From a virus (lineage: Duplodnaviria > Caudoviricetes), in the IMG/VR virus record IMGVR_UViG_3300032007_001727: 64,000 nucleotides of DNA; one strand, given 5' to 3'. The notes under the pieces were generated by a model. That model was given only the letters and a program-made list of their open reading frames with translations. It did not search any database and was not told the origin of the DNA. This document shows positions 17,572 through 55,355 of the stretch, piece by piece (position 1 is the stretch's first letter; each line of letters begins with the position of its first letter). The position numbers were made by a program, and so were the translations under genes.

Positions 17572-17715
17572 ACTACCCATCAACTAAAGATTTGTGGAAT
17601 TTTTTGGTGTTTTTTATTAAAAAACATTAAAATAATGTGGGATATCTTGTGTATCTCACATTTTTTTTATACTTTTGCAAAAAATGATGGTACAAACACA
17701 GAAAGAATAATCACT

Positions 17716-19107
17716 ATGCAGATATTCAAAGAAGAAAGAATTATCAAGTTAATTGAGTTCATAAAAGATGAAATTAAGGATACTGCCTTCAGAAACCATG
17801 TATTCGTGGTCGGTGGCAGCATCAGAGATTCATTATTGGGACTTAAGGTAAAGGATATTGACTTGGTGGTGGACATCCCAAACGGAGGTGTATTACTATC
17901 GACGTTCTTGACAGCCAAGAACAACTGCTATAGAACCGGAAAGAACCCCGTCATTTACAACAAATACGGTACCGCAAAGTTCCAATTTCTCAACCACAAC
18001 GAATTCAACGACATTGAAATAGAGTGTGTACAAACTAGGAAGGAACAATACCACAATGAGAGCCGGAACCCAAAAGTCGTATTCGGCGAACTTGAAGAAG
18101 ATGCCAAGAGAAGGGACTTTACGGTCAACTCAATTTACTACAACATTAGCAGTGATAGGATAGAAGACCCGAATAACGGGTTGGATGATATTCTAAATGC
18201 TGTCATCAAGACTCCGTCAAACCCAAGAATAATCTTCATGGAAGACCCGCTCAGAATTCTGAGGGCGGTGAGGTTTTCTTGTAAATTGGGTTGGGGTATT
18301 GAAAAGGATACTTGGTTGGGCATGATTGAAAATGCCCATAGGATAGATATCATATCCCAAGAAAGAATAACCGATGAGATAACCAAGATTTTGACATCAC
18401 ACAAGCCTAGTGTCGGGATAAGGAAGATGCTAGGGTGCGGATTGCTACATAGGGTATTGCCGGACATATACGACCTAATTGGCGTATCTGAGTGCGGCAA
18501 ACTGTCTCTGTTTGACCATACAATGTCTGTGTTGGATGTCGTAAACCCGTGCATAGAGCACCGTTTAGCAGCCCTTTTCCATGATGTGGGCAAAGTCGTT
18601 GTCAATGGGGTTAATTCAAAACACGTTGATGTCCCCTCTTTCAGCAGTGATATTGCCTCCCATGACTTGTTTATGATGAAATATCCGAATTCCGTAATAG
18701 ATACGGTTGAAAAGGCAATCAAGTATCACATGGCCTTTTCCAATTACGGGGAATATGAAATCCCAAGGGATAAGATACTCCGGAAATTCATTCATCTAGT
18801 AGGTGATTCGATTGCACCGACATTCGACCTTATGAATGCAAACAACGCATTCTGCGGGCGAAACAAGAAGAAGACCCAAGTCATGAACATACTGAACCGG
18901 ATGGAAGAGTTGGAAAACATAGAAAATATGCAGAATGTTAAACTTCCGGTTTCCGGAAAGGATATTATGGAGAAATTCAATCTGAAACAGTCTCCGCTGA
19001 TTGGTACCCTCTTGAATGAGATAAGAGAGGCTTATTTTGAACGTCCGGACATTACAAAGGAAGAGTGCTTTGAATTGGTAGACAAAATCTTAAATAAAGT
19101 TATCTGA
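17716..19107 (+). CDS. cca: CCA-adding tRNA nucleotidyltransferase / poly(A) polymerase family with HD domain
   Basis: VGGSIRD, KDIDL, DAKRRDFTVN, EDPLRILRAVRF, SQERI, LFHDVGK. Confidence 0.88.
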   Translation: MQIFKEERIIKLIEFIKDEIKDTAFRNHVFVVGGSIRDSLLGLKVKDIDLVVDIPNGGVLLSTFLTAKNNCYRTGKNPVIYNKYGTAKFQFLNHNEFNDIEIECVQTRKEQYHNESRNPKVVFGELEEDAKRRDFTVNSIYYNISSDRIEDPNNGLDDILNAVIKTPSNPRIIFMEDPLRILRAVRFSCKLGWGIEKDTWLGMIENAHRIDIISQERITDEITKILTSHKPSVGIRKMLGCGLLHRVLPDIYDLIGVSECGKLSLFDHTMSVLDVVNPCIEHRLAALFHDVGKVVVNGVNSKHVDVPSFSSDIASHDLFMMKYPNSVIDTVEKAIKYHMAFSNYGEYEIPRDKILRKFIHLVGDSIAPTFDLMNANNAFCGRNKKKTQVMNILNRMEELENIENMQNVKLPVSGKDIMEKFNLKQSPLIGTLLNEIREAYFERPDITKEECFELVDKILNKVI

Positions 19108-38309: not shown

Positions 38310-38636
38310 ATGTTCGTATTAATTTTTGTCAAGAGTTATGAAAACGGGTTTTCGATAGAAAACTCCTATCAGACTGCCCTTTATGAGAGCAGGGAAGAAG
38401 CCGTAAAGGTTATGAAAGAGAGCGCAGAGAAGCACGTTAATTCCTATTTGGAAACGGAAGATGATGAGCACATAGAATTTACCGAATACGGGGATTTGGG
38501 GGAAAAGGGTTTGGGCTTGGATATTGAATATCAAGCCAATAAGATTTCGGTGACGGATGATTGCAGTTTGAGCAACCACTATAGGAAATGGGAATGGGTT
38601 GTTACGGCAAGTAAGCCGGAGATTGAAGTTTATTAA
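38310..38636 (+). CDS. Hypothetical early protein
   Basis: Follows a promoter repeat. Confidence 0.7.
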   Translation: MFVLIFVKSYENGFSIENSYQTALYESREEAVKVMKESAEKHVNSYLETEDDEHIEFTEYGDLGEKGLGLDIEYQANKISVTDDCSLSNHYRKWEWVVTASKPEIEVY

Positions 38637-38724
38637 CATTAAAGAAAAAAAGTTGGGATAATATTTCGTTATTCCAATTTTTTTTGGTATATTTGCAATG
38701 TGAAATAAATAATCAATATTAATT

Positions 38725-39081
38725 ATGTTAGTTAGAGTATATATTACATCAATAGAAATTGGCCTTGTGGTGAATGAGGCCGTTGATAGCGGGCTTTTGA
38801 GGCTACAGCGTAGTTTTGACGGTAAGAACGGGATTCTCGCCATATATGACGGGGAAATCAGCAAGATTGGCTTAGTTGCCCTTTCCGTCTTCGGGGTTAA
38901 GTTTTTCCCCTTGGATAACTATGGGGAATTTAAGATTACTTGCCCACATTGCGGCCGGAGAATTGAGGACGATTGGATTCTCACTTCATATACAGATGAG
39001 GTGTTGAGTGGAAAGAATATAAAGTGCGACAATGAGGAATGCGGCCATCAGATGGCTAATGTGGAATTTATTTTTAATTGA
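38725..39081 (+). CDS. Zn-ribbon hypothetical protein
   Basis: CPHC...CDNEEC. Confidence 0.65.
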   Translation: MLVRVYITSIEIGLVVNEAVDSGLLRLQRSFDGKNGILAIYDGEISKIGLVALSVFGVKFFPLDNYGEFKITCPHCGRRIEDDWILTSYTDEVLSGKNIKCDNEECGHQMANVEFIFN

Positions 39082-39305
39082 AAAATGTGTATGAGGATTA
39101 CGAAAGATTTCGTTATAGGGCAAGGACACGATACAGATTAGTATGACTGCATAATATAGTAATGAGATTGTTTTTGGAAATGGCATTTGTTGTGAAACAC
39201 GTGCCATTTTTTATTTTTAATTGAAAATAATTTGATTTTTGTTTCGGTATTTCAAAACTTTTGGGTACTTTTGCATTGTCAAACAAATAAAAACAATTTA
39301 AGATT

Positions 39306-40211
39306 ATGAAAAAGATTGAAGATGCTATCGCCTATAATCTGTTTCAATACGAAATGAACAGATTAAGCAAAATTACCTACAAGGGTTACGAAAAAACTTT
39401 GAAGGAGATTGGAATTGCCTATATTGCTTATTGCAATTCTTCTGCAAAATTAACGCATAACGGCAAGAAACATATGCTTACCTATGGCCTTTATTTGGCA
39501 TCATCTGACTTGTCCGGAGTGAACGTATGCCCAAAGAGCAAAATATGTCGTGAAAGTTGCCTTGTAGGTAGTGGTCACGCGAGGGTAGAGGGTTTGGCAA
39601 GTAAGGATAACTTGATTAATTCCCGTATCACCAAGACAAGGCTATTCTTCGCAAATAAGCCATTGTTTATGAAGTTAATGTGCATTGAGATTGACCGAGC
39701 CATTAGAAAGGCTGAAAGGGAAGGCATGGGCTTTTCCGTCCGGCTGAATTGTACAAGTGATATAAGCCCCCTTGCATTTTCATTGAATGGCAGGAACATT
39801 CTTGAAATATATCCGAATGTTTCATTCTATGACTACACCAAGGTAAAAAACTATTGGAAGATAACAGAGAGATATAATAACTATTATCTTACCTTTAGTC
39901 GTGACGGGAGCGAGGAAAACGATTCAGAGTGCATGGAATGGCTTTCGAGGGGCAATAATGTAGCCGTAGTATTTGGTGTACGCAAAGCGTCTGAATTGCC
40001 CAAGAAATGGAGAGGCTACGAAGTGTTGGTGGGTGACGATTACGATTATAGGGTATGGGACAAGTTGCAGGTTGGCAAACAGATTGTCGGCCTTGTATAT
40101 AAAGTGACCAAGAATGACTATGTAAAGGGTGAAGATGGCAAGTTTCACTTTGGTGGGATACCTAAATCTCCCTTCATCATACAAGCAAATGACAAGGATT
40201 GTGAGTATTAA
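39306..40211 (+). CDS. GP88-like phage protein (Cys-cluster)
   Basis: CPKSKICRESC, VRLNCTSD, FYDYTK, YLTFS, GNNVAVVF, GD..DYR. Confidence 0.7.
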   Translation: MKKIEDAIAYNLFQYEMNRLSKITYKGYEKTLKEIGIAYIAYCNSSAKLTHNGKKHMLTYGLYLASSDLSGVNVCPKSKICRESCLVGSGHARVEGLASKDNLINSRITKTRLFFANKPLFMKLMCIEIDRAIRKAEREGMGFSVRLNCTSDISPLAFSLNGRNILEIYPNVSFYDYTKVKNYWKITERYNNYYLTFSRDGSEENDSECMEWLSRGNNVAVVFGVRKASELPKKWRGYEVLVGDDYDYRVWDKLQVGKQIVGLVYKVTKNDYVKGEDGKFHFGGIPKSPFIIQANDKDCEY

Positions 40212-40284
40212 TTACTCACAATCTTTTTTGAAAAATAATTCCATTTTTATTTCGTCAATTCAAAAAGTTTGGGTAATTTTGCAT

Positions 40285-40355
40285 TGTAAATAGTAAATGT
40301 TGTTTGTTTAAGGTTGAGTGGCATTTGTTGTGAAACACGTGCCATTCTTTTTTTG
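40285..40355 (+). ncRNA. Stand-alone ~70-nt small RNA
   Basis: Early promoter repeat, then a U-rich tract, GUGA hairpin and U run, with no ORF in between. Confidence 0.55.
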
Positions 40356-40444
40356 TTTTTATTTGAAAATAATTGTGATTTTATTTCGTCATTTCAAAAC
40401 TTTTGGGTACTTTTGCATTGTCAAACAAATAAATGATAAAGATT

Positions 40445-43400
40445 ATGAAGTTTACATTGCATGGAAGAGAGTATGAAAGTTACCAATTGAGCAACGGCGC
40501 AATATTGGAATTGCTTGAAGGTAACACAATAAGCAATAAGCAGCGTGAATATCTCACCGGGAAGGTTCTCGAAAGATTTAAGAGCGATTTGTGTCCGAGA
40601 TATGGAGAGGGCACGGATGAGGTGTTTGCTCGTTTCTTCAGTGACTACGTGAACAGATGCCCCAATGATTTCAATAAGGCTGCAAGAGCCATGGGCACGG
40701 AACACAGATACTTACAGAGTGAAATGTTCAAGATGTGCCTTGCCTACATTAAGGAATTGTCGGAGCATTACGAAAGTGGCCGTTATGATGCCCGTAATGA
40801 ATGGGCTTGCCGGACAGCCAATGAGATAAACAAGATATTATAAAAATTTAGTAGCATATGAAGATTAAGGATTTGCCGAAGTTTTGCCTAAACATTGGCA
40901 ATACATTGGAAGATGAGTATGACGTGGCCGCAACCAACAATGGAATTTCCGTAAATGGTGAGATAGTTGGTGGCTATGATGAGGAAAGGGACATCAATGA
41001 TACTGATGATTTCTTAGAGTTGATTGATGATGCCATTCGTGAATGTGATGCCTTCACAGATGAGGACAAAGAAGAATTGGGAGTTGTTCTCTATAGTGAC
41101 GTACTGACATACGATATTGATTCTTGGTGGGACGAAGAAAAATTGTGAAAAAAAGTTGTGATTTTATTTCGTCAATTCAAAACTTTTGGGTACTTTTGCA
41201 ACGTCAAAACAAATAAACATTTTAATTAATATAGTATAAACAATAAAAAGATTAAAGTTATGAAGTTAGAAGTAAATGACATCGTGAAGATTCGCAGAGG
41301 CGACTTCGGAGTAGTAGTAGGTTTCAACAACAAGCCCTGCGCAATTCTGTTCCACTCCTTCACAAGTGTGCTGACGCGCTACAATGAGAACTTGAAGCAC
41401 TCCAACAAGGAATACGACATTGTGGCCGTGTACAACGGTGACAAGGTTGAGTCCTACAAGGAAGTATATCGGGCTAAATTCGACCCGGATGCCCTTGAAT
41501 TGGAGTTGCGGTACGAAGAATCCGTTTAACAATAATTAACAGAAATTGGAAAGGCATATTCTTTGCTTTTCCAATTTTTTTTTATATCTTTGCAAAAAAA
41601 GATAAGAAAAATGAAAATAACCACGGACGAAAGTAAGATTTATGAGAAGCATTGTGGCAAGAAGATTTGCACAGAAAATCTCAACATCGAAGGTTTTAAG
41701 AAGCCGATTCCATTTGACATCTATGATGGCTATGCAGTATGTTTAGACCATGGTGGCCATAGGTTTGATTTGGTTTATCCGACATTAAAGGCAATCAGCG
41801 AAAGCAAGGAACTATCCGATGCCATAATAGACTATGTCGGTGACATTTCAAACAAGTATGAAATCAGCGTCATTCATATCTTAATAACGTTTTCTACCTT
41901 ATACAAAGATGGGGTTGAGATAAAACCTAAGAAAAAATAAAAATTTAGGACTATGGGAAGATTTACTATTGAAATGAATTACAATGCCTCTATAATTGTT
42001 GAGGTGAACGCAGAAGATGAGGGAAAGGCATTAGATGAGGCAAGGAACATTGCCGAGGATGCGGATATTCGTGAATTTACGATTACATCTGAAAGAGAAT
42101 CAAGGATTCTCAAACGGGAATAAAAAAGTATCTCTGTTTTTAGACTGCAATAAATTGACTTGGTGAATTGCGTTTGTCGTGATGATAAGCGCAATTTTTT
42201 TTTAAAATAATTCCATTTTTGTTTCGGTAATTCAAAACTTTTGGGTACTTTTGCATCGTCAAACAAATAAAATGATAAAGATTATGACTAAAGAGGAAAT
42301 GGTTTTCGAGATTATGAAGTTTATCGCCCCCACGTTCGCGTCAAAAGGCGTTGAATTACAAGAACGTATAATTGCAGGTGGCGGCAACCCACAAGAGTGT
42401 ACAATTGGGGGTTATACAATTCTCGAGGCACAAGCGCAAAGCGCAAAGGAATGGGCAGAGGCTTTCGTAAATGTGTTATATAAATAAAACTTTAAACAAT
42501 GATTAAAGAGGAATTTTTGAAAACAATTGGTGGCTATCAAGCAGAGATAAGCGCACTCCATGACAAGATTGTAGAAACCACGGCCAAGTATCTCAAAGAG
42601 GCTGAAAAGCCCTACCCGGTTGGCTCGAAGGTTAGAGTCATCACCAATGAGCGAGGCACTAAGATTGTTCAAGCCGGAATCGTGACGGACTACACGCTCA
42701 ATCTTCAAGATGACATCACTCCGGTGATTATGAAGATGAAGAAGGACGGGACACCACATCCGACACAGAAGATTTGGTGTACATGGCGAAGTGTCATTGA
42801 ACCCATAACAGAATAAGGTTATGAAAAGGTTAGAAGAACTAAAGAGAAACAATGATACACGTTACTTCACCAATGGGAAGGTTTCCTTCCCATTGGATTT
42901 GTCCAAGATAACGTATGCGTCAAGAATTGATTTGGAACACGCAATGTACGCGGAGCGTGACGAGGAATGTGACTATCCTACAATTAATGAGTTGATTGCA
43001 AGCGGTTCTTTGCAGGAAAAGTCATATATCAAGATGTGTGATATAGATTATGAAAAATATCCGGCACAAGTTAGGCGAATGGATGAGAAGCAGATAGATG
43101 CCTTGTTAAAGAGGGTTCAAAACAAATTCAAGGCCAACGGATTCAATGTTACATTAGAGGCTTTGGTACATAACTTGAACGCATGGCTATTGGACTATAA
43201 GAGCGGCTATCTGGATGAGGCAAACAAGTATCATCTGTTCACTCCCTGCGGCTGCAACCCATTATCCTTTAGGGCTTCAGAGTTGGATGAGCACTGCCGA
43301 GATTGGCAAACAACATATGAAGCATAAAAAAAGTTGTGATTTTATTTCGGTATTCCAAAACTTTTGGGTACTTTTGCAATGTCAAACAATTTAAAACAAA

Positions 43401-43939
43401 TAAAGATTATGAGAATAAAAGGAAAAAAATCAATCAGTAATCGCATAGTTGAGATTGCTGAAAGCGGCAAGGCGATTGGGATGCCGAGCAAGTTTAATCT
43501 TCCACAGAACAAGGCCGTGCGCGAAAAGCATATTGCCATCTGTAAAGAGTTGGTTGAGATTTCTAAAAAGAACGGCAATTATCCGATAGGTACGCTTATT
43601 TACTTTGCCATCGGTACAAATTCCCATCGGACGGAAGTGTTTGAAAAGTGCTATCGGAAGATAGATGCCAAGAAGGCCGAAACCATCATCAGTTGGGTAA
43701 AGTTGTTCGCAGAGTATAACGATAACCCGAAAATGGTCAAGAACGCGAAGATTGCCCATGCCATCTGTTCCTTCTATGACAAGAACAATGGTGATACAAA
43801 GGCTTTCAAGATTGCCTTGGGGTGCTCGCAGCCGAATCCGGCAATAGAATCATTCAAGGAAACCGCCCAAGCATTGGGAATTGCGAAGGAGTCGCTTTCA
43901 GAGGCCGAGGCTGAAATGGCGGTGGTAACGGTTGAGTAG
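40445..43939 (+). CDS. Run of small early genes: 40445-40843, 40858-41148, 41260-41529, 41611-41940, 41953-42123, 42284-42487, 42499-42816, 42821-43327, 43409-43939
   Basis: Most follow a promoter repeat and an ATTATG-type start. No recognisable domains. Confidence 0.7.
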
Positions 43940-44051
43940 TTTTATTTTATATCAATCATATTTCCGATTTTCTATTTTTTGGTGAGTACCATCCGTGAGG
44001 AGCGGAAAGCCATTTTATTAACAAGAGTTTTAAATTTAAAATTAAATCAAT

Positions 44052-44525
44052 ATGAAAAAAATAGTTTATTCATTAGTGTTGATGATGTGTGTTATGTCGG
44101 TATTTAATTGTTCGAGCAACAATAGGCCGAAAACCATCATCGGGAGTTGGGAAACCATCAGTGTCAAGGGTGAAGTGAAGGAGTTTGGCGGTGAGTTCGA
44201 GCAAGATTTCACATCACAGCAGATAAACCCCATCTATGAGGAAATGTATCGTTTCAAACTAACCTTTGACGAGAACACTTGCGTAACACTTGTTTCGTCT
44301 GTCAATGGTCAATGGAAGGAAGATTCAGTTGATGTGTACAATTATATCCTCAACAATGGTATGGTGCGCATCTTGGACGTACGCAATAAGATGTTCGGAA
44401 ATGATAATGATGTGCCGCCCTTGGACGAAACGTTTGAGTATGCAATAATAGGTGACGAATTGTTTATGACTTGCTATAACGAGGATGAATATGTCACTTA
44501 CCGGCTGAAACGCATAAAAAATTGA
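44052..44525 (+). CDS. Lipocalin-like lipoprotein
   Basis: Signal peptide with Cys, IIGSWE motif, beta-rich. Confidence 0.6.
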   Translation: MKKIVYSLVLMMCVMSVFNCSSNNRPKTIIGSWETISVKGEVKEFGGEFEQDFTSQQINPIYEEMYRFKLTFDENTCVTLVSSVNGQWKEDSVDVYNYILNNGMVRILDVRNKMFGNDNDVPPLDETFEYAIIGDELFMTCYNEDEYVTYRLKRIKN

Positions 44526-44603
44526 AAAAAGTTGTGATTTTGTTTCGGTAATTCAAAAACTTTGGGTACTTTTGCAATGTCAAAACAAAAAAACGAATAG
44601 AAA

Positions 44604-44717
44604 ATGAGTAAAAGAAGTTTCAAAAGAGCGGTTGCGGCCGCAAAGGTTACGGCCATCCCGTCAAAGAAGAAAGGCAATGGACAAGATGCCATTCAGTTGT
44701 ACAACGTGTACAAATAG
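44604..44717 (+). CDS. 37-aa basic peptide (absent from the ORF track)
   Basis: MSKRSFKRAVAAAKVTAIPSKKKG..., directly after a promoter repeat. Confidence 0.55.
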   Translation: MSKRSFKRAVAAAKVTAIPSKKKGNGQDAIQLYNVYK

Positions 44718-45154
44718 GTAGCAGCACTACCGAATTTACGCTTGTGGACTACCCAACTGCCGAAAGGCGAACCACACGAATGTGTGGGGCTATGGATGAC
44801 AGACTCGGCAATGAGGTACTAAAAAGTAGTGGTAGGTTGAAGCAAGAAGTTAATAATGGATAAACAAATTTGTTCAAGTTTTAACATGCTGTACAAGTAA
44901 CTGATTATTAACCCGTGGAATATGGGGGTGTCCTCCGGAACACGATAGGTCGAGCAAGTTCATCGGTCACCCCCATCCACACAATTCAAGCCATTATGGA
45001 ACGTCCTCCACCCAAGTAAGGAATAATTCAGATAATTTATTTTTATTATTATATGCAAATTTAAAGCCCATAACACAATGAATCCAAGAGCAAGTCCCAT
45101 AAAATAGATTTTAATTCGTCTATACATTATACATTAATTATTTATTCTCTCGCA

Positions 45155-45260
45155 GGGATAAACCCAAACGATGGGTATCACCCTTGACGCAACGAAGTCC
45201 CCGGAGAGTCCGGCTGACATGAACGTCATTGGCGATTGCGGTTCGTTCCGCATTATCCCA
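45155..45260 (+). ncRNA. tRNA-like RNA whose anticodon loop is replaced by a multi-hairpin domain
   Basis: Acceptor GGGATAA/TTATCCC plus A; hairpin ACCCA/TGGGT; T-like arm TGCGG-TTCGTT-CCGCA; internal CCGGA/TCCGG and TGAC/GTCA. Confidence 0.6.
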
Positions 45261-45423
45261 CAATAAAAAAACTGTTTTTCGTAATTTGAGTTGTTTAGGT
45301 TAATTGTAACAGATGTGTTGTGATAACACGTCTGTTATTTTTTGAAAATAATTCTGTTTTTATTTCGTCAATTCAAATTATTTGGGTACTTTTGCATTGT
45401 CAAACAATTAAATAATATAAGTT

Positions 45424-48400
45424 ATGATTGAAAAGAAAGAAAATTTAGTAGAGTTGTCAAAGAAAATCGTAGATTTCAATGAGGCCGTGATTGCCGCTTG
45501 CAAGGCAAAAGGCATCGCAGTACCAAGCGCAGAGGAAATGAGCGACTATATGCACAATTATGGCTTTGATGTCCAAGATTTCATGCAAACCATCCAAGAG
45601 CAAGAGAAGGAGATAACTCCATTCGATGAGTTTAAAAATGAGGTTATGGGCATTTGTTGGAGCGATATGCCCACGGATAAGGAAATGCTTGCCTTCTTCA
45701 ATGAGAACGGCCACAATGTCCGCTTATTCATGATGCAGAGAACCATTCAAGATTTTAATAAGATTGAGAAGGCCATATATGACGCGGTAATTAACAAGTT
45801 TAGCATCGAAGAACTTGTTGGCCTTTGGAACTTCTTTATTGAAGAAAGTGCATTGTATGGGGAAGATTCCAAAATCTATGACCTTAAAAATTCGGATTCC
45901 ATCCCCATCATTGCAAACATGGGAGAAGCAGACGCAAGGAAATTGTTTAACGATGTAATCTGCAAGGGAAAGAGATTCTTCCAATTCATTGTCAGTATTG
46001 ATGTGAAAGAAGAAGATGATATTAAAGGCATCATTACGGCCTTTTGGGAGGAAATATGTGCGAGAATACTCATGTTCCCGATGGAGTATAATAATAATGT
46101 TGCTCCAAGTTCCTGCCTATTTATGGAAGTTGTGTGGCCGATAATTACCAAAGAGGCCGGAGTTGTTATTAATTATTTTCAGAATGAATTAAAATACACC
46201 CATTAAATAATTAGATTAGATATGAAATTAAGGGACGAAATAATCGACCACATTGACCGAGGGTTTAGGGATGTGGTGTTTTACAAAAGGGATGCCAAAG
46301 GCATATATGGGATTTTATCGGCAAAGATACATGGAAGTTCAACTTTAACGATGATTCCGAAGATACCAAAGAATATTGTTGTTACGGCAATAGATGAGCG
46401 GCACGACAAGGTTGTCTTTCCATATGAAGATTTGGAAGTAGAAGCGGTTATAACGTGGAACAAGGCACAAAACGGATGGGCGATGAAAGCGATAGAGTGA
46501 CAAGATAAAACTTAATTTATAAAAACCTTCTTGTATGGAATTTTTCTTTCAAGAAGGTTTTTTCTTTGTTTATTTCTTGTTTTTTAAAAATATTTTATAT
46601 ATCTTTGCATTGACAATGTTTAATTGTCGTTCAAGGAATAAAAACCTTTTTAAATTGAGATAAGCAAACGTTGGGGGACGTTTGCTTATTTTTTATTTGA
46701 AAATAATTGTGATTTTATTTCGGTATTTCAAAAACTTTGGGTACTTTTGCAATGTCAAACAAATAAAAACAAATAAAGATTATGGAAAAGATTTGGTTAA
46801 TGACCCAAGAAAGCAAGGTGGATGGGGATATTTTCTTTAATGTCATTCCTTGCGCAACGGAAGAGGCCGCAAAGGCTGAAATGGAGAAGGAGATTCGCAC
46901 CTTGATGAATAAGAGTCCTTATATCGAATATACGAATAGGTCTCTCGATTTTATCCGTGAAGAAACTGAAACCTCATACTACATTGAGGACACTTGCGAT
47001 GCTTATTATGAGTACATTAGGATAGAGAAAAAGGAAATAGTAAAGTAATAATAAGATTATGAGCACACCTTGTAAAATTATCATGAAAGTTCCCGAAGAA
47101 TACAAGGGAACGACCATTAAGTTCAATAAATCAGCCCTTCCTATTGAATTGAAGGAATGGTACGAGAAGGACGAAAAGACAAATGAGGTTTGGTTAGACC
47201 AAAGATGTAAGGAAAAATCACGGCCAATAAAGATTAAGGGTGATTACATTGGCATATATTGCCATTGGGATGGCGATAAAATCGGCAAGGTATTGAAGGA
47301 ACTATTCACCGACAAGAAAGCCGTATTGAACCTTATTGCCGGTGGTTTCTGCTCATTTATATGGTATGATGGTGTTAAACGCTATGCCAATAGGAATTGC
47401 GAAATGTGGAAGGACATAAAGCCAATACAAGGCTCTCGTAAAAAGGTAGAAGAGAGCATCTACGGACTCTATGAGTATGTATTTGTCAATACTTGGACTA
47501 AAAGGAAACTATGAAAAAATAACTTGATTTTTATTTCAGTATTTCAATTTTTTCCGGTACTTTTGCAATGTCAAACAATTTAAAGCAAATAAGATTATGG
47601 GTAAACATGTTCATGTAGCAGTAAAGTATGAGGTAAGTTATGATTCCTCATGTGGTTTTAATTGGCACAATGTGGAGTTTAAGGAATTACTCCAAGCCTT
47701 GAATGTCAGCACATACGATGCAGATGGAGAATTAACTGACGGATTTTCCGACACATGGGAATGTCATTCGGATGAGTACAACGAGGCATTGACTTTCTTG
47801 AAGGAGCATAAGGAGGACATACGCAGCCTTGATGAGGATGGTGATAAGCCGGAGTGTAACGGCTACGATGTCGAGTGTGAGGACATCTATGAAGCAATAA
47901 TTGGCCTTGAATGCGGCAATGGCTTTGAGGATTCATACGAAGAAGTTGTTAAGATGATGGAACTATTCCAAAAACAAGCGGCAACATCGGACGGATATAT
48001 GCACTTTTGTGCCTTCTGAAATAATGGTTGGGGTGAGGATTTTTATCTTCACCTCAACTTTTTTTGTTTTTATTTAAAAATAATTTGATTTTTATTTCGG
48101 TATCTCAAAGTTTCTTGGTACTTTTGTATCGTCAAACAATTTAAAATAAATAAGATTATGAAGAAAGCAATCGAATTAATGAATCAGATGATTCCTATGA
48201 AGAAGGAAGTAAAAAAGACTTGTATCGCATACCTAAAGAGGGTGTTGGAGAAGTGCAATAACAATTACTTGTCCTTCTATGACGAGGATGGTGAGGCATA
48301 TGGCAACAGATACGTTTCCGTCACCTATGACGGGGGAAACCATCCGGAGTATGAAAGCAATGCCTTCAGTACCGTAAAGGGTGTTTTCATTGACAAATAC

Positions 48401-51400
48401 GGGGACATCTGCCTTGACACAGAGGATGATGATGCCTATGCCATTGAGAACATCAACCTTGAAGAACTCTATGACATCGCGGAGTATGTGTATGCAGACG
48501 TGGAAGAAACAATAAACCAATAATTTAGAAGAACGTTAAATTGAGGTGGGGATTTTATCTTCACCTCTTTTTTTATTTTTAATTGAAAATAATTACATTT
48601 CTATTTCGTCAATTCAAAACTTTTGGGTACTTTTGCAATATCAAACAATTTAAAACAATAAATATTATGACCTATTCACTTATAATTGAACAATATTGCG
48701 CTGATGCCAAGTATGTCAATGACATAAAGACTTGGAAGGAAGTAACCGATTTCTTGAAGAATCAGTTATCACAACTAACAACTTGTGTTCACATCTTCAA
48801 GTTTTCAAGCAACAGCAAGACCCTCGGCTCGAAGGTTGTGACAATGGGCAACCTCTTTGATGTGTGCAATTCTCTTACGGACAAGATATTGTTATAAATC
48901 AAAAACAAAATAAGACTATGGCACATTATAAAGAAGAAGTTAGATTTTCTACAAAGTTCAAGAGATTCAATGTTTTCACAACAAGTGGGGAAAACGTAGT
49001 AGTGAAAAGTGACAAGCCAATGACATTGGATGAGGCAATGTATGAGTATAAGGCACTTGCCATTGGCGGAATAGATTAAATAAACTAAAAACAAAATAAG
49101 ATTATGAGAAGATTAGCGATTATTGACCATGACACCCATACATTGTATGTGGACGATGTGGATGAGAAGGAGTTAGAGGAATATTATGATGGTGATGAAC
49201 AAGCCTACATCGAGGATAATTATGCCCTTCTTAATAATTACTCATGGGATTGGGTTACAGATGGCATCTATTACAAGAAGATGTACGAAACTGGAATCGA
49301 CATCGATTTTGACAAGTTAATAGAAGAATAAACAATTATTAAATAAAAAGTAAACAAATGAACAAAGAATTATTAACGGTCGAGTTTCGTTATCACGTCA
49401 TTCCAAAATCAGAATATGATTCCGACTTTGAGTCAAAAGAAGTTACGATTGGAGTGTATGAAACGCTCGATGAGGCTATAAAAGAAGGAAACAATGTCCT
49501 TAAAAAATTATCTTCAAGATTTAAGTTTCGTGAATCATTTGGCACTCATAATGGCGTGTTTGGTTCTCCCACACGACTTGTTTGTGACTGCTTCAATGGC
49601 TATCCGCAAGTGTTCTGCAAAATAACGCAACTAAAATATGACAATATAAATAATGTTGCGAACGTGGCTTTTGACAATGAGGAAAAATATCGTAAATGGT
49701 GTGTATAAGTTAAAAACAAAATTATGATTGCAAGAATTACATTCCGAAGCGAAGTTTACGTTGAAGGCGATAATATCGAAGATATTGCAAGGAAATGGGA
49801 AGGTATGGAACTTTACTCCGCTGAAGCAAACAAGGGAATGGTATCACTATCCCCGGCCGAGTTTGTTGAACTTGACAAAGTAGAAGATGAAAATTATAAC
49901 GACATCACAGATGAATTTAAGAGAAAATAAGTGGTGGGGGAGAAATCCTCCACCTTTTTATTTAAAATAATTTGATTTTTATTTCGTCATTTCAAAACTT
50001 TTGGGTACTTTTGCAATGTCAAACAAATAAAAACAATAAGATTATGGAAGAAATAATTAAACTTCAAGAAGAAATTGACAAGAAGCAATGTAAGGTTAGA
50101 AAAGGCTGTATTGAATACCTTAAAAGAGCCACCGAAAAAGTTGGTGGAACAATCTGCATGGATGATGAGGAAGACGTAGTTATGGTAGCCTATGATGGTG
50201 GACGTCACCCGGAATATGACAGCAATTTGTATTCAGCGGTAGAAAGCGTTTTTCTCAAAGATGGTAAACTCTACCTTAGCATAGAGGACTGCGATGAGTA
50301 TGAGATTGACCGCGTAAGTAGCGATGAAGTCTATGCCGTTGCCTTGTTCGTTTACGGCATGCTTAACGAAAATGCCTAATAGAAATACTTTTGCAATGTC
50401 AAACAAATAAAGATTATGAAAACAAAAAATGATTCAAGGACAAAGAGAAGGGTTGTCGAAACCTACAAGGGATTTGACATCATAAAGGTAATTGTTGAGT
50501 ATTTTCATAAATCCTTCTACGGCTATGAGTATGATGATGATTGGGTAGATAGAAGGACTGTTTACTTTGACTTCTGCAAGGAAGGAGAGGGCAAGAAGTC
50601 AAGCCAAGCATATTCGGTATATGCAAAGAACATTTCAGATTGCAAGGAATGTATTGACAAGTTCATCGAGGATGATTCCTTGTACTTCACAGATGAGGAA
50701 GTAAGGAAGTATGTAACAAAGCCGAACCATGATTGCGGTTGGGCTTATGGGTACGACTCATTGATGAAACTCATGAAGCAGCACCAAAAGGCTGATAAGC
50801 GAATGAAACGGCTTATTGAGGATAGGCTATCCGATGCTAACTTTCATTCCGAGGCTGGTTTCCTCTCGCAAGAAGATTATGTAGGTTTCACTGATTTGGT
50901 AAGAAAAACCTACAAGTTCTGTGAGAAGTTTGAAATCTATACTGAAACAATGGGAAAGAGGATTGACAATCCCAAAGGGCTTGAAGAAGGCTTGAAGATG
51001 GTTATCAATGACTTTCTTAAAAAACGAGGCATAGAAGATACGGACGTTAAGGTCAATTTTGTGGAAAATTGGTGAGTGGAGCAATCCACCACCATTTTTT
51101 TTTTTGAAAATAATTCTATTTTTATTTCGTCAATTCAAAAAGTTTTGGTACTTTTACATTGTCAAACAAATAAAAACAAATAAAGATTATGAAAAGAACA
51201 ACTAACATTAGGATTGAATCATTCGACCTATCACGAGAGCAGCATGATATGGCGGTTGAAATGGTCGTGAATGACAAGCGCAAGGTAGCCTCTTACACCT
51301 TGGAAGAGGTGGATGGCGAAATGGCTAATGTATGGATTTCCGAAGCCCATTCCGAGGGCAATACAGATTATGCGGAGTTCCTTCGCAAAGCCATTGCTGA

Positions 51401-53234
51401 GAACGCAGAACTTTACACCCTCACAGACCATTTAGGTGGGTTTGCACAGCCTATCGGTGAGGTGGCAGCATTTCAGAAGCAGTATTTCACAATTGATATT
51501 TAATGGCATATGTTTACTCTATTCACATTACTTTTAATCATTTATTGGTTATCCATATCGATAATTGAAGACGGTTTTGAATACACTTGCAAGGAGTATC
51601 TTAAAGGGTTAATTATGATGCTATTGTTTGCTATGGCCGTTGATGGGTTCTTCATAGTAATATCACATCTGTTATAATCATGGAAAAGAAAGCATTTTAT
51701 AATAAGTTGTCCGGCACTCGCTATGAGATAGTGGATAGCGCATGGATAGACAAAGATACATTCGTCATTGTCTTTCAAGATATGAAAGACATAGATGGTG
51801 ACACGTTCCATTTCGAGGCTGAATACCATAAGGACGAACAAAAGGTGACATTCTGCTTGGTATATGAGAATCAAGTGTTAAGCGGAGAGGACTGCATCCC
51901 AACCTCAATAAAGAGAGAGATTGAGGAATATATGCTAAAGCAATTAGATGTGGTCAAGGGGATGCTTATAAAGCATAATATTACGCTTGAATTGTCGCTT
52001 GACATTGACGAAAACTTGACAATGGATGAATTAAGGGCATATCTTAATACCTTGGACATAGATGTGAAGGGTTATGGTGACAAAGTGAATTGCATAGGAG
52101 TTAAACGAATAAATTAGGCGGATTTTATGATGATTGAAGCAAAAATAATTCTGTTTTTGTTTCGGTAATCCAAAAAGTTTGGGTACTTTTGCATTGTCAA
52201 ACAATTTAAAAACAAATAAAGATTATGGAATACAAAGACATTGCACCCGTTGTTAAACATGATTATGCAAAGCCATATAGGGTCAAGTACGCAAACGGAA
52301 AGACAGCCATTGTGCGCCTTTGGCTTGCATCTAACGGATTGGTAGCCAAGTTGGCTAAAGGGAGAAAGGTACACGGCTATGTGCTTGGTTATTACGACTA
52401 CAAGGATTGGGTGTCGTTGAAGGCAGTGGAGAAGAAGCCGACAAGCACGTTCACCCTCATGAAGAAAAGGGCAACAGATGCCTTGAAGTATCTCACACAG
52501 AGCGGAATGTGGCCTTCAATTAAGAAGGAGATAGAACATTTCCTTTCCGATGATGCCATCATACAAGCCGTAGCCGATGCCATTGACAAGGATTCATACG
52601 AGTCTTTCTACAAGGAATGCTACGAGAACGGGAAATTCCCATGGTGTCACACCACACAAGTGTTCGAATCCTTTGCCGCCAAAAGATGTTGGCAGTCTAT
52701 CCCATATCAAAGGTGGGAAAGGGAAAGGATGAACCAAAGAATAAGTAATGCCATTGAGGATAGGCAAGACTTCAGTTACCGTTGGACTAACGGCTATGAC
52801 AATACAATAGAGATTAGCGGTGGCGAAGAACTAAGGGGATGGCTATCATGTGAATACAGAGGCTGCGGAAACGGACATTACTACCTTCTATTTGATGCTA
52901 CCCATGCCATCTTCTACGAGGACGATTGAAAAGTAATTAAAAATAGATTAATAATAAAAAGATGAACAAAGATATTGAAAGAATAAAGGGTATTGTGCTC
53001 TCGAAAGGGAGCACAGACCCAAAAGGCGGCAGGGTGCTCAAACTAGAGGCCGGAAAGGTTACGGTACTATCGAGGGCCAAAGAAAGACTTTATCCCGTGG
53101 CCCTGCGCGTATACCAAGAAGAATTGCAAGTGGTTTTCGTTAATAAGAGAAAGAGATTCTTTTCCTATCCATTGCTATCACTGCAAAGTGATGCTCCTAA
53201 GTTATTCGAAAAGGTCATATCCGTCTTTTGTTAA
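45424..53234 (+). CDS. Run of small early genes: 45424-46206, 46222-46500, 46782-47048, 47059-47514, 47597-48019, 48158-48523, 48667-48897, 48918-49079, 49104-49331, 49358-49708, 49724-49930, 50044-50379, 50416-51075, 51189-51503, 51680-52117, 52225-52929, 52962-53234
   Basis: Promoter repeats and A-rich leaders. 48158 and 50044 are paralogues (YDGG.HPEY.SN). 47059 has a GIYCHWDG motif. Confidence 0.7.
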
Positions 53235-53392
53235 CAAATGTTAAAATGTTGGCAAATATTTTGGATTGTCAAATATTTTATATATCTTTGCAATGTCTTG
53301 AAAAGGACGATAAAACATAATTAAAGAACTCGGTTGCGGTGGACAACACGCCAAACTATAGTTAAGAGTTAGGGCATTTAAAAACCACCTTT

Positions 53393-53517
53393 TGGGAAGT
53401 ACTAGAGGAGAACCATCTTGCAATCCTGCAAGGGTGGATGTAGACAAATAGGTATCAAGTTTGTGCTTGATATGTCGCCTACGGGCGGCTTCGGCGGTGC
53501 AAATCCGTCCTTCCCAA
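53393..53517 (+). ncRNA. Expanded cloverleaf tRNA-like RNA, copy 1
   Basis: TGGGAAG/CTTCCCA acceptor, U8A9, D stem CTA/TAG, long variable arm, T arm GGCGG-TGCAAAT-CCGTC. Confidence 0.8.
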
Positions 53518-53574
53518 CAAATTTCTTGCGGTGGACAAGGACGGAATTAATCCGAAAAAAAACCACCTATCTTT

Positions 53575-53690
53575 TGGAAGATACCGGAGGAGAACTATCC
53601 GCAAGGGTAGATGTAGACAAACGGGTATCAAGTATGTGCTTGATATGTCGCTTACGAGCGGCTTCGGCGGTGCAAATCCGCCTCTTCCAA
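53575..53690 (+). ncRNA. Expanded cloverleaf tRNA-like RNA, copy 2
   Basis: TGGAAGA/TCTTCCA acceptor, D stem CCG/CGG, compensatory changes relative to copy 1. Confidence 0.8.
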
Positions 53691-53708
53691 CACTTTTGTT
53701 TGACGCGA

Positions 53709-53756
53709 TGAGGGTTCGGCTTTTCTAAATCTTTACGGCCGAACCCTCTATTTTTA
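53709..53756 (+). terminator. Intrinsic terminator
   Basis: GAGGGTTCGGC / GCCGAACCCTC stem followed by a T tract. Confidence 0.7.
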
Positions 53757-53864
53757 TTCAACCCCAATTGAAACATATATCACACCATAAAAAAGAAGTG
53801 TGTCATAAAACACACTTCTTTCGCTTTCTGACGGCCTTTAACCATTGGGGCAATACTTTCCCGG

Positions 53865-54062
53865 TCACTTAATTCCAAGCCTCTTACATAACGCTTCAAG
53901 CATTCTATCCTTGATGCTTGCCACCTTCCAATTCTTTTCGTCCTTTCCGATTAAGATGTCTTTGACAATGAAGGACTTTAATTCTTGTTTTGTTTTAAAC
54001 CCGCATTTGCGGCAGAACGAAGCACATTCCTCAATGAACTTGTTAAACTTCTCGTCATCCAT
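53865..54062 (-). CDS. Hypothetical protein
   Basis: Divergent promoter TATATTTG upstream. Confidence 0.55.
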   Translation of the reverse strand: MDDEKFNKFIEECASFCRKCGFKTKQELKSFIVKDILIGKDEKNWKVASIKDRMLEALCKRLGIK

Positions 54063-54167
54063 ACACAGAAAAATATTTTTGGTTACACAATGCAAATATA
54101 TCAAAAATATTTCGGTATTCCAAACTTTTGGGGTACTTTTGTGATGTCAAATAAAATAATAACGATT

Positions 54168-54401
54168 ATGGCAATAGATATTTCGAAACTACCATTGACT
54201 CAGTTAAGGAGTTTAAGGAATTGCTGCTATAACTTGGTTATACGCAATCTAAGACAATGTCCGGAGGGCGATGAGAAATATAGGAAGATAAGAATACTCT
54301 TGTCACAATTCTATCTTGGTATCGTTGCACAGAATGAGTTGCTTCAAGAATGTGTCGAACTCGGATGGATTAATGAAAAAAACATCACCCATTTCTTGTG
54401 A
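54168..54401 (+). CDS. Hypothetical early protein
   Basis: Follows a promoter repeat. Confidence 0.6.
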   Translation: MAIDISKLPLTQLRSLRNCCYNLVIRNLRQCPEGDEKYRKIRILLSQFYLGIVAQNELLQECVELGWINEKNITHFL

Positions 54402-54438
54402 TTAAAGAATATTTTATATATCTTTGCATTGTGACAAT

Positions 54439-54512
54439 CGGGGTGTAGCGCAGTTGGTTAGCGTGCTTGTTTTGGGAACAAGTGGTCGTGTGTTCGAGTC
54501 ACACTACCCCGA
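54439..54512 (+). tRNA. tRNA-Pro(TGG), CCA not encoded
   Basis: CGGGGTG acceptor start, anticodon arm CTTGT-TT TGG GA-ACAAG, T loop TTCGAGT. Confidence 0.93.
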
Positions 54513-54604
54513 CATCTGCTTGAATCTATACTTGTATTTTCTACTACCAAATTCCAACCGGCTGTGAAGTTAGTTGGAATTTTATTTTACCCATTTCCCA
54601 TATA

Positions 54605-55355
54605 GACTTAATTAAGTACATAGAGGGGCGTACCACACCCATTCACCATTGTATCATTATTTATTATAGATTAATAATAATTTTCCCTTACAGATATTGC
54701 ATATAAAAATTGTGCACCACACTTAAATTCATATGTGGTACACAATCCGTATAGTCCATTCCATATTACCTATGGACTTAATTAAGTACATAGAGGGGAC
54801 TTTGGAATGACGGATTCCATTATATCCTCCGTCCATCATCACTTAATCACAATTTGACCCTCTAGCGACAATATGTGTCTATCCTTGTGTCATAGTGCTC
54901 ATATCTAATCTTTTCACCCAACAACCTAGCAACCTTCTTGCACTCCAATACATCTTCCCATTTGCATCCCATTGTTGTCCGGTAGCAGAATCCATCACGA
55001 AGCCAATCCACTGAATAGATTTTAGTTTTTCTGACTATCTTTTTTTCATTTCCAATTATTTTTTTCATAGTTCGCTATGTTATTATATGATTATCTATTA
55101 ATTTATTCATATATATTATCATTATATTATGTATGCAACTAACTTCTAAGTCCATCATGTGGAGCGTCCATCCTTTGCCGGAGGCAATTCCCCGGAATCC
55201 TTACACCATCCACATATTTCTATATTTTTCTTCATATTCCTATCTAATTTCATTACAAAAGTACCCAAAAGTTTTGGAATATCGAAATAAAAATCAATTT
55301 ATTTTTCCTCCCCCACAAATGATAGTATTAATTCTATAGACTTAATAAAGTACAA
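54605..55355. repeat. Palindrome (G)ACTTAATTAAGTACA cluster 2 (54606, 54776, variant 55339)
   Basis: The first two copies are followed by TAGAGGGG, as in cluster 1. Confidence 0.8.
54862..55068 (-). CDS. Hypothetical protein
   Basis: 68-aa ORF. Confidence 0.5.
   Translation of the reverse strand: MKKIIGNEKKIVRKTKIYSVDWLRDGFCYRTTMGCKWEDVLECKKVARLLGEKIRYEHYDTRIDTYCR

Follow-up and report, generated by a model that had tools for sequence, protein, structure and literature searches.

A cloverleaf RNA element in the tRNA slot of a phage cassette, possibly a processing or stabilizing handle for a conserved RNA tail

Results

We analyzed a 64,000-nt stretch of DNA (the window) from a 135.8-kb IMG/VR virus record (Duplodnaviria; Caudoviricetes) that is estimated to be 45% complete. 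A cloverleaf element at 45155..45260 occupies the position at which related phages carry a genuine or degenerate tRNA, just 5' of a conserved tail; given this position, it is most likely a processing or stabilizing handle and not a decoding tRNA. Our preferred reading, which we hold tentatively, is that the element is a plus-strand, non-decoding module of the tRNA slot that marks processing of the tail RNA or stabilizes it. The plus strand is assigned from context: the element folds on both strands, and its pairing pattern fits the minus strand better. The element is kept, with three transitions, in three near-identical contigs (L034-36) from ENA metagenome assemblies that are taken to be from rumen studies.

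Structure of the element

On the plus strand, the element is closed by a perfect 7-bp acceptor-like stem (GGGATAA, 45155-61, with TTATCCC, 45253-59) followed by the unpaired A45260. Inside this stem lie a D-position hairpin of 5 bp (ACCCA-AACGA-TGGGT, 45162-76), a T-like arm (TGCGG-TTCGTT-CCGCA, 45237-52), and an imperfect stem with one A.C mismatch (ATCACC, 45177-82, with GGCGAT, 45231-36), all of which the first-pass annotation had described correctly. That annotation also placed three small hairpins side by side within the imperfect stem, an arrangement that folding does not favor: scored explicitly, it reaches -24.3 kcal/mol, compared with -41.5 kcal/mol for a single nested arm of 60 nt (45177-45236) in which UGACG/CGUCA surrounds GUC/GAC, which in turn surrounds CCGGA/UCCGG. 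The minimum free energy fold of the plus strand is a four-way junction (-41.5 kcal/mol, z -3.3), and 1 of 200 shuffled sequences folded as well. Of its 37 pairs, 35 are intact, including the closing stem and two perfect 5-bp hairpins. The minus strand folds into a mirror cloverleaf that is more stable (-49.3 kcal/mol, z -4.6), with none of 200 shuffles as good. The GC content of the element is 56%, compared with approximately 26% in the flanking spacers.

The junction has no unpaired linkers, and thus no counterpart of U8/N9, of position 26, or of the variable loop. The D-position loop is AACGA (5 nt, without GG), and the T-like loop is UUCGUU in the window and UUCGCU in L034, with 6 nt rather than 7. 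The GG-UUCG..-CC hallmark of a T arm is present on the plus strand only. After the fold had been obtained, we noticed that the T-like loop has two complements elsewhere in the structure, the D-position loop and an internal AACGAA loop in the long arm. The element was said to be unrelated to a pair of tRNA-like units near 53.4 kb, and this was borne out by a covariance model built from it (R1), which found no second copy in the 135.8-kb record.

Comparison with tRNAs and known RNA families

The element resembles a canonical tRNA (RF00005) in its cloverleaf outline, in its 7-bp closing stem with one unpaired purine, and in its 5-bp GG-UUCG..-CC arm immediately before the 3' strand. It differs in having no anticodon loop, no linkers, and no GG in the D-position loop, and in its 6-nt T-like loop. 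Feature by feature, a tRNA has a 7-bp acceptor stem and an unpaired discriminator base, which the element has as well, with the same stem also present on the minus strand. In place of a U8/N9 linker, a 4-bp D stem, and G18 G19, it has a 5-bp hairpin with a 5-nt loop, and in place of a 5-bp anticodon stem with a 7-nt loop it has the 60-nt irregular arm. The T-like stem has 5 bp ending in G-C, and its loop begins with UUCG but has 6 nt, as compared with a 5-bp stem and a 7-nt UUCRANY loop in tRNAs. No CCA is encoded after A45260.

Searches for tRNAs passed over the element. In the window, ARAGORN and Rfam both called only a tRNA-Pro, at 54439-54513. Rfam models did not match the element at the gathering score across the whole window, at E values up to 5 in 38500-55000, or at E values up to 10 in the 601 nt from 44900 to 45500, where the tRNA model was included. 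The same Rfam searches of the window led us to reject identity with a self-cleaving ribozyme or riboswitch. We also built a covariance model (R2) from nine sequences that occupy the tRNA slot in related phages. With filters off and E values up to 10, it found nothing at 45155-45260, and it matched the tRNA-Pro of the window at 35 bits. In addition, R2 weakly matched the T arms of the 53.4-kb pair (53491-53509, E 1.8; 53664-53682, E 0.83), two units that the Rfam tRNA model left uncalled at E values up to 5. The element, rejected by ARAGORN, Rfam, and the slot-specific model, is not a recognizable tRNA. What stands of the tRNA frame proposed at first is the shape and, chiefly, the slot position, as set against these failures of detection. 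Blastn detected no similarity between the cloverleaf and the slot tRNAs, and any descent of the element from a tRNA is putative.

Homologues of the element were likewise confined to this phage lineage. It is kept in L034-36, and R1 found none in the records of 10 related phages (five of them complete) or in 151 Prevotellaceae genomes. A DNA search of GenBank phages and an exact pattern of the T arm and acceptor in IMG/VR gave no match, and a pattern for the window's type of tail gave only chance matches in JGI metagenomes. The 260-aa protein encoded downstream of the element is 97% identical in L034-36 and 30 to 42% identical in more distant relatives; a large protein database held relatives that were either 97% or at most 42% identical, and thus no intermediate lineage for covariation. 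Searching IMG/VR with the 260-aa and 157-aa flanking proteins as bait recovered no relatives.

The cassette in the window

The genes around the element are arranged in small plus-strand cassettes, each of which starts with a Bacteroidota-type box, TAnnTTTGCAnTG; this motif occurs 19 times in the window, compared with 0.26 occurrences expected. The box TACTTTTGCAATG at 44567..44579 on the plus strand is the only recognized promoter placed to transcribe the element, and no exact TAnnTTTG box lies within 255 nt upstream of the element on that strand. The cassette begins with a small basic open reading frame (ORF) of 37 aa (44604..44717, plus strand; ..AIPSKK..QLYNVYK), read from the sequence. Further downstream, at 44993..45113 on the plus strand, is the remnant of a large non-coding RNA, which shares a block (ATGGAACGNCCNCC..TAAGG) with a related phage (L052:3274-3397; blastn, 66% over 126 nt, E 2e-6) and also matches two others, L037 and L053. 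The cloverleaf is followed by a U-rich tail at 45261..45305 and, in a terminator scan, by an intrinsic terminator at 45306..45344 with a 15-pair stem, a 3-nt loop, and a GUGA tip, then a U run. The element is bracketed by a plus-strand promoter and a plus-strand terminator.

Basic ORFs of 57 to 58 aa that appear by eye to be counterparts of the 37-aa ORF are present in two relatives (L037:4826-4999 and L052:2883-3059), and the motifs A[IV]PSKK and QLYN are common to the window and the relatives. The 37-aa ORF, which is too short, gave no match in tblastn. Its product may be a partner of the RNA encoded downstream. Between the ORF and the remnant, the window contains a 183-nt insertion (44714..44896) with TGTACAA repeats at its bounds, which is missing from L034, L035, and L036 in the alignment. 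The insertion is outside the cloverleaf and within the same predicted transcript. Its sequence re-forms the final part of the 37-aa ORF together with the stop codon, and it has no match in Rfam.

We rejected two further identities for the element. As a 5' UTR element or part of a type I toxin system, it would be the leader of a 55-aa ORF with a hydrophobic stretch, the sole minus-strand ORF beside the element; this ORF has no homologue among 1.8 billion representatives, and all three of its differences from L034 are non-synonymous. Against a retron, transposon end, or terminal inverted repeat element, we saw no reverse transcriptase or target duplication, and the downstream protein belongs to no Pfam family.

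The tRNA slot in related phages

Using the conserved tail as a search pattern, we recovered ten related phage loci. The same cassette is present between the same two genes in about 10 related phages of 295 to 412 kb; by tblastn, homologues of the 191-aa and 260-aa proteins flank it in L037, L041, L042, L046, L048, L049, L050, L052, and L053. At every recovered locus, a tRNA or tRNA-like sequence lies directly 5' of the tail, on the strand of the cassette. The element shares this genomic slot, its strand, and the start of its trailer with the slot tRNAs, and the flanks of the element are homologous to those of the relatives by blastn, with 44993-45113 matching part of the large upstream RNA and 45260-45348 matching the tail.

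The occupants of the slot are diverse, and all are on the cassette strand. L041 carries a tRNA-Lys with anticodon UUU (69 bits in Rfam), L047 carries a tRNA-Gln, and L043 carries a 79-nt tRNA (52 bits). In four relatives, the slot tRNA has an anticodon loop of 8 nt, UGCCAACA (L044:547-620, L049:10418-10491, L050:3063-3136, and L052:3759-3832); ARAGORN reports a four-base anticodon, CCAA, for this tRNA, and it has G.A or A.A mismatches at the base of the acceptor stem. The slots of L037, L048, L042/L053, and L046 hold degenerate or expanded cloverleaves that are not called as tRNAs. In L037, this is an 85-nt tRNA-like sequence with normal D and T arms and a 19-nt loop. The expansions differ in place and sequence: that of L046 affects the D arm, and those of L037, L042, and L043 affect the anticodon region; the 109-nt element of L046 (L046:9677-9785) is expanded in the D arm in the manner of the 53.4-kb pair of the window.

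Among the nine slot sequences, pairing is kept at 100% in the T stem and at 84% in the acceptor stem; the parts that resist alignment are the anticodon or D regions. Because the slot tRNAs may be different tRNAs swapped in, covariation among them says little about a single evolving lineage. Several of the relatives' slot tRNAs have imperfect acceptor stems, so the processing constraint on the slot may be loose.

Upstream of the slot, the relatives have a large, block-conserved non-coding region, taken as free of ORFs (L052:3060-3758, L037:5000-5708, and L041:945-1783), with 565 to 990 nt lying between the nearest promoter and the slot. In Rfam searches of the relatives' cassettes, this region matched no model, including those for GOLLD and ROOL.

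The conserved tail and terminator

A tail of approximately 38 nt is identical in all nine aligned relatives and is recognizably kept in the window, where MAFFT and blastn place it within the plus-strand U-rich segment. The consensus fold of the tail contains no predicted pairs, and the segment is therefore predicted to be single-stranded. The terminator hairpins of the relatives differ in sequence; 6 of 12 pairs keep their pairing through two-sided changes, with the G.U pairs on the plus strand. After the unpaired A, the trailer in the window begins with CAA, as do the trailers of the L041 tRNA-Lys and the L047 tRNA-Gln, and the 3' edge of the element thus coincides with the 3' end of a tRNA.

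The tail resembles FopS, small RNAs of Bacteroides (RF04319; PMC11697453), in having a U-rich 5' part and then a terminator with a GUGA loop. The FopS model weakly matches 45272-45344, at 27.9 bits compared with a gathering score of 56 (E 0.043 in a search of 0.6 kb and 1.2 in 16.5 kb), and does not match the tails of the relatives; we therefore rejected identity with FopS. When compared with 401 Prevotellaceae genomes, the tail of the window gave chance-level matches only. The tail of the relatives had a strong match in 1 of the 401 sampled genomes and none in the others. In this 2.9-Mb Prevotellaceae metagenome-assembled genome (G011), it is perfectly antisense over 34 nt to L063:2056-2089, which lies within an ORF exceeding 2300 aa that has repeated ..IPNSVT.. 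units, from which we read the product as a probable BspA-like leucine-rich repeat protein. The reverse complement of the tail resembles an A-rich leader followed by ATG GAA AAC AAA G.

Substitutions and the choice of strand

The three differences in the 106 nt of the element equal the rate in the flanks; our own alignment count gave approximately 2.7% overall. Both non-Watson-Crick positions of the fold are in the long arm, as are two of the three substitutions. Each of the two non-Watson-Crick positions is an A.C mismatch when read on the plus strand and a G.U pair when read on the minus strand, so that the minus-strand fold has 37 standard pairs out of 37. Read on the minus strand, the transitions in L034-36 change C-G to U.G, U.G to C-G, and a loop A to G, the last of which leaves the complementary-loop pairing possible through G.U. 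Read on the plus strand, they relocate an A.C mismatch and add another in the loop pairing. The minimum free energy stays nearly level between the window and the L034-36 variant on the minus strand (-48.1 and -47.9 kcal/mol) and weakens from -41.5 to -39.3 kcal/mol on the plus strand. An alternative plus-strand helix (GAACG, 45221-25, with CGUUC, 45244-48) would show a double change from A-U to G-C, although its formation would be in competition with two further helices. The strand preference of the pairs is the chief feature that our reading leaves unexplained, and it argues against a plus-strand processing mechanism.

One explanation of this signal is that the functional molecule is a minus-strand antisense RNA, structured as the same four-way junction, that acts on the plus-strand cassette transcript or is made against it. 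The greater stability and rarity of the minus-strand fold among shuffles, its full set of standard pairs as opposed to the two A.C on the plus strand, and the preservation of pairing by all three transitions on that strand alone favor this explanation. Weighed against them, the three or four transition sites amount to a likelihood ratio for the minus strand of only about 8 to 16; the minus strand has no exact TAnnTTTG box closer than 210 nt to the element; and the neighboring genes, the promoter, and the terminator are all on the plus strand, as are the U.G pair of the terminator hairpin and the slot tRNAs of all relatives. The 55-aa minus-strand ORF downstream, with no homologues and exclusively non-synonymous differences, also counts against it. 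We therefore regard a minus-strand antisense RNA as unlikely. Should the minus-strand signal prove real, the element would be of another nature, one that no known family accounts for.

The equality of the substitution rates in the element and its flanks is what would be expected if the cloverleaf were a functionless relic, a structured remnant, now drifting neutrally, that rearrangements had left behind at a rapidly changing tRNA slot. The plus-strand mismatches are the expected product of G-to-A drift, the slot is unstable across the relatives, and the large upstream RNA has mostly been lost in this lineage. Against such a relic stand the nearly complete set of plus-strand pairs and the GC-rich island in an AT-rich spacer, and the gain of a 60-nt paired arm is unexpected in a decaying tRNA. 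We consider this explanation quite improbable.

The first-pass annotation had proposed that a tRNA frame displays a functional insert, such as an aptamer, a decoy, or a protein-binding arm, in place of the anticodon loop. The arm is indeed long and well paired, its AACGAA loop and the D-position AACGA loop could allow a specific tertiary fold by pairing with UUCGUU, and arm expansions also occur in further tRNA-like RNAs of this phage and its relatives. The proposal is nonetheless unsupported and, in our judgment, very doubtful: no relative has a counterpart of the arm, the expansions in L046, L037, L042, and L043 vary in place and sequence, the arm holds both mismatches and most of the substitutions, and the conserved sequence is the tail, outside the cloverleaf.

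Discussion

We return to the plus-strand handle as our preferred reading. The order within the conserved cassette is a promoter, a small basic ORF, a structured non-coding RNA, a tRNA or tRNA-like RNA, the U-rich tail, and a terminator. In this phage, the slot appears to have no decoding tRNA left; it retains a 7-bp closing stem, which directly adjoins a 5-bp GG-UUCG..-CC hairpin in the sequence, and one unpaired A. In a tRNA, what RNase P, RNase Z, and CCA-adding enzymes read is the acceptor stem with the T arm stacked on it. If the closing stem of the element stacks coaxially on its T-like arm, tRNA-processing enzymes could cut at G45155 and after A45260. Such cleavage would detach the tail RNA from the RNA upstream, and the 5' end of the tail would thereby be defined; the cloverleaf might instead remain attached and protect the tail. 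Transcription of the plus strand and any function of the tail are likewise putative. The geometry is atypical, with a T-like loop that lacks one base and a junction free of linkers, and RNase P or RNase Z may or may not recognize it.

The window also encodes a tRNA nucleotidyltransferase (17635-19107; phrog_2244, E 2e-58). A CCA-adding enzyme of the phage's own fits with a phage that keeps many unusual tRNA-like RNAs.

A more specific version of the processing mechanism seems improbable to us. In this version, the phage would have exchanged a tRNA for a minimal cloverleaf that is not a tRNA, with a linker-free junction in which the Watson-Crick complementary AACGA and UUCGUU loops replace the elbow formed by the D loop and T loop of a tRNA. 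The cloverleaf would still recruit tRNA-processing enzymes and would thus release a conserved, antisense-type small RNA from a longer non-coding transcript of the phage. Were this mimicry of the elbow true, the combination of a large RNA, a tRNA handle, and a small RNA would be a new kind of phage RNA operon.

Known systems offer partial parallels. The mascRNA at the 3' end of MALAT1 is a tRNA-like processing module, and the 3'ETS-leuZ of E. coli is a tRNA 3' trailer that acts as a small RNA. Like these, the element is tRNA-shaped and belongs to a longer predicted non-coding transcript, in which it is preceded by another RNA and followed by a conserved short RNA, and cleavage by tRNA-processing enzymes is predicted to define the ends of its neighbors. 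It differs from both in its bacterial phage setting and has no sequence relation to them, and its shape is further from a tRNA than that of mascRNA. Engineered tRNA scaffolds carry a recombinant RNA inserted into the anticodon stem; similarly, a long arm replaces the anticodon stem-loop of the element inside a frame of closing stem and T arm. The element, in contrast, is natural, its D arm and junction are not tRNA-like, and its arm is only a putative payload. GOLLD and ROOL are large phage RNAs that often adjoin or carry tRNAs (bioRxiv 10.1101/2024.12.08.627333). The relatives resemble them in that their phage genomes have a large conserved non-coding region directly preceding a tRNA, whereas neither the window nor the cassettes of the relatives match these families in Rfam, and the window keeps only a fragment of the region.

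If the element is a handle, the slot presents a graded series that runs from working tRNAs, through tRNAs with odd anticodon loops, to a cloverleaf reduced to a closing stem and a T-like arm, and it would provide natural evidence that the role of a tRNA as a processing handle can outlive its role in decoding. Both tRNA-like processing modules and tRNA-linked small RNAs are already known; a series within one slot that leads to a non-tRNA cloverleaf would be new. The conserved tail RNA and the large unclassified RNA of these rumen jumbo phages are worthwhile objects for experiments.
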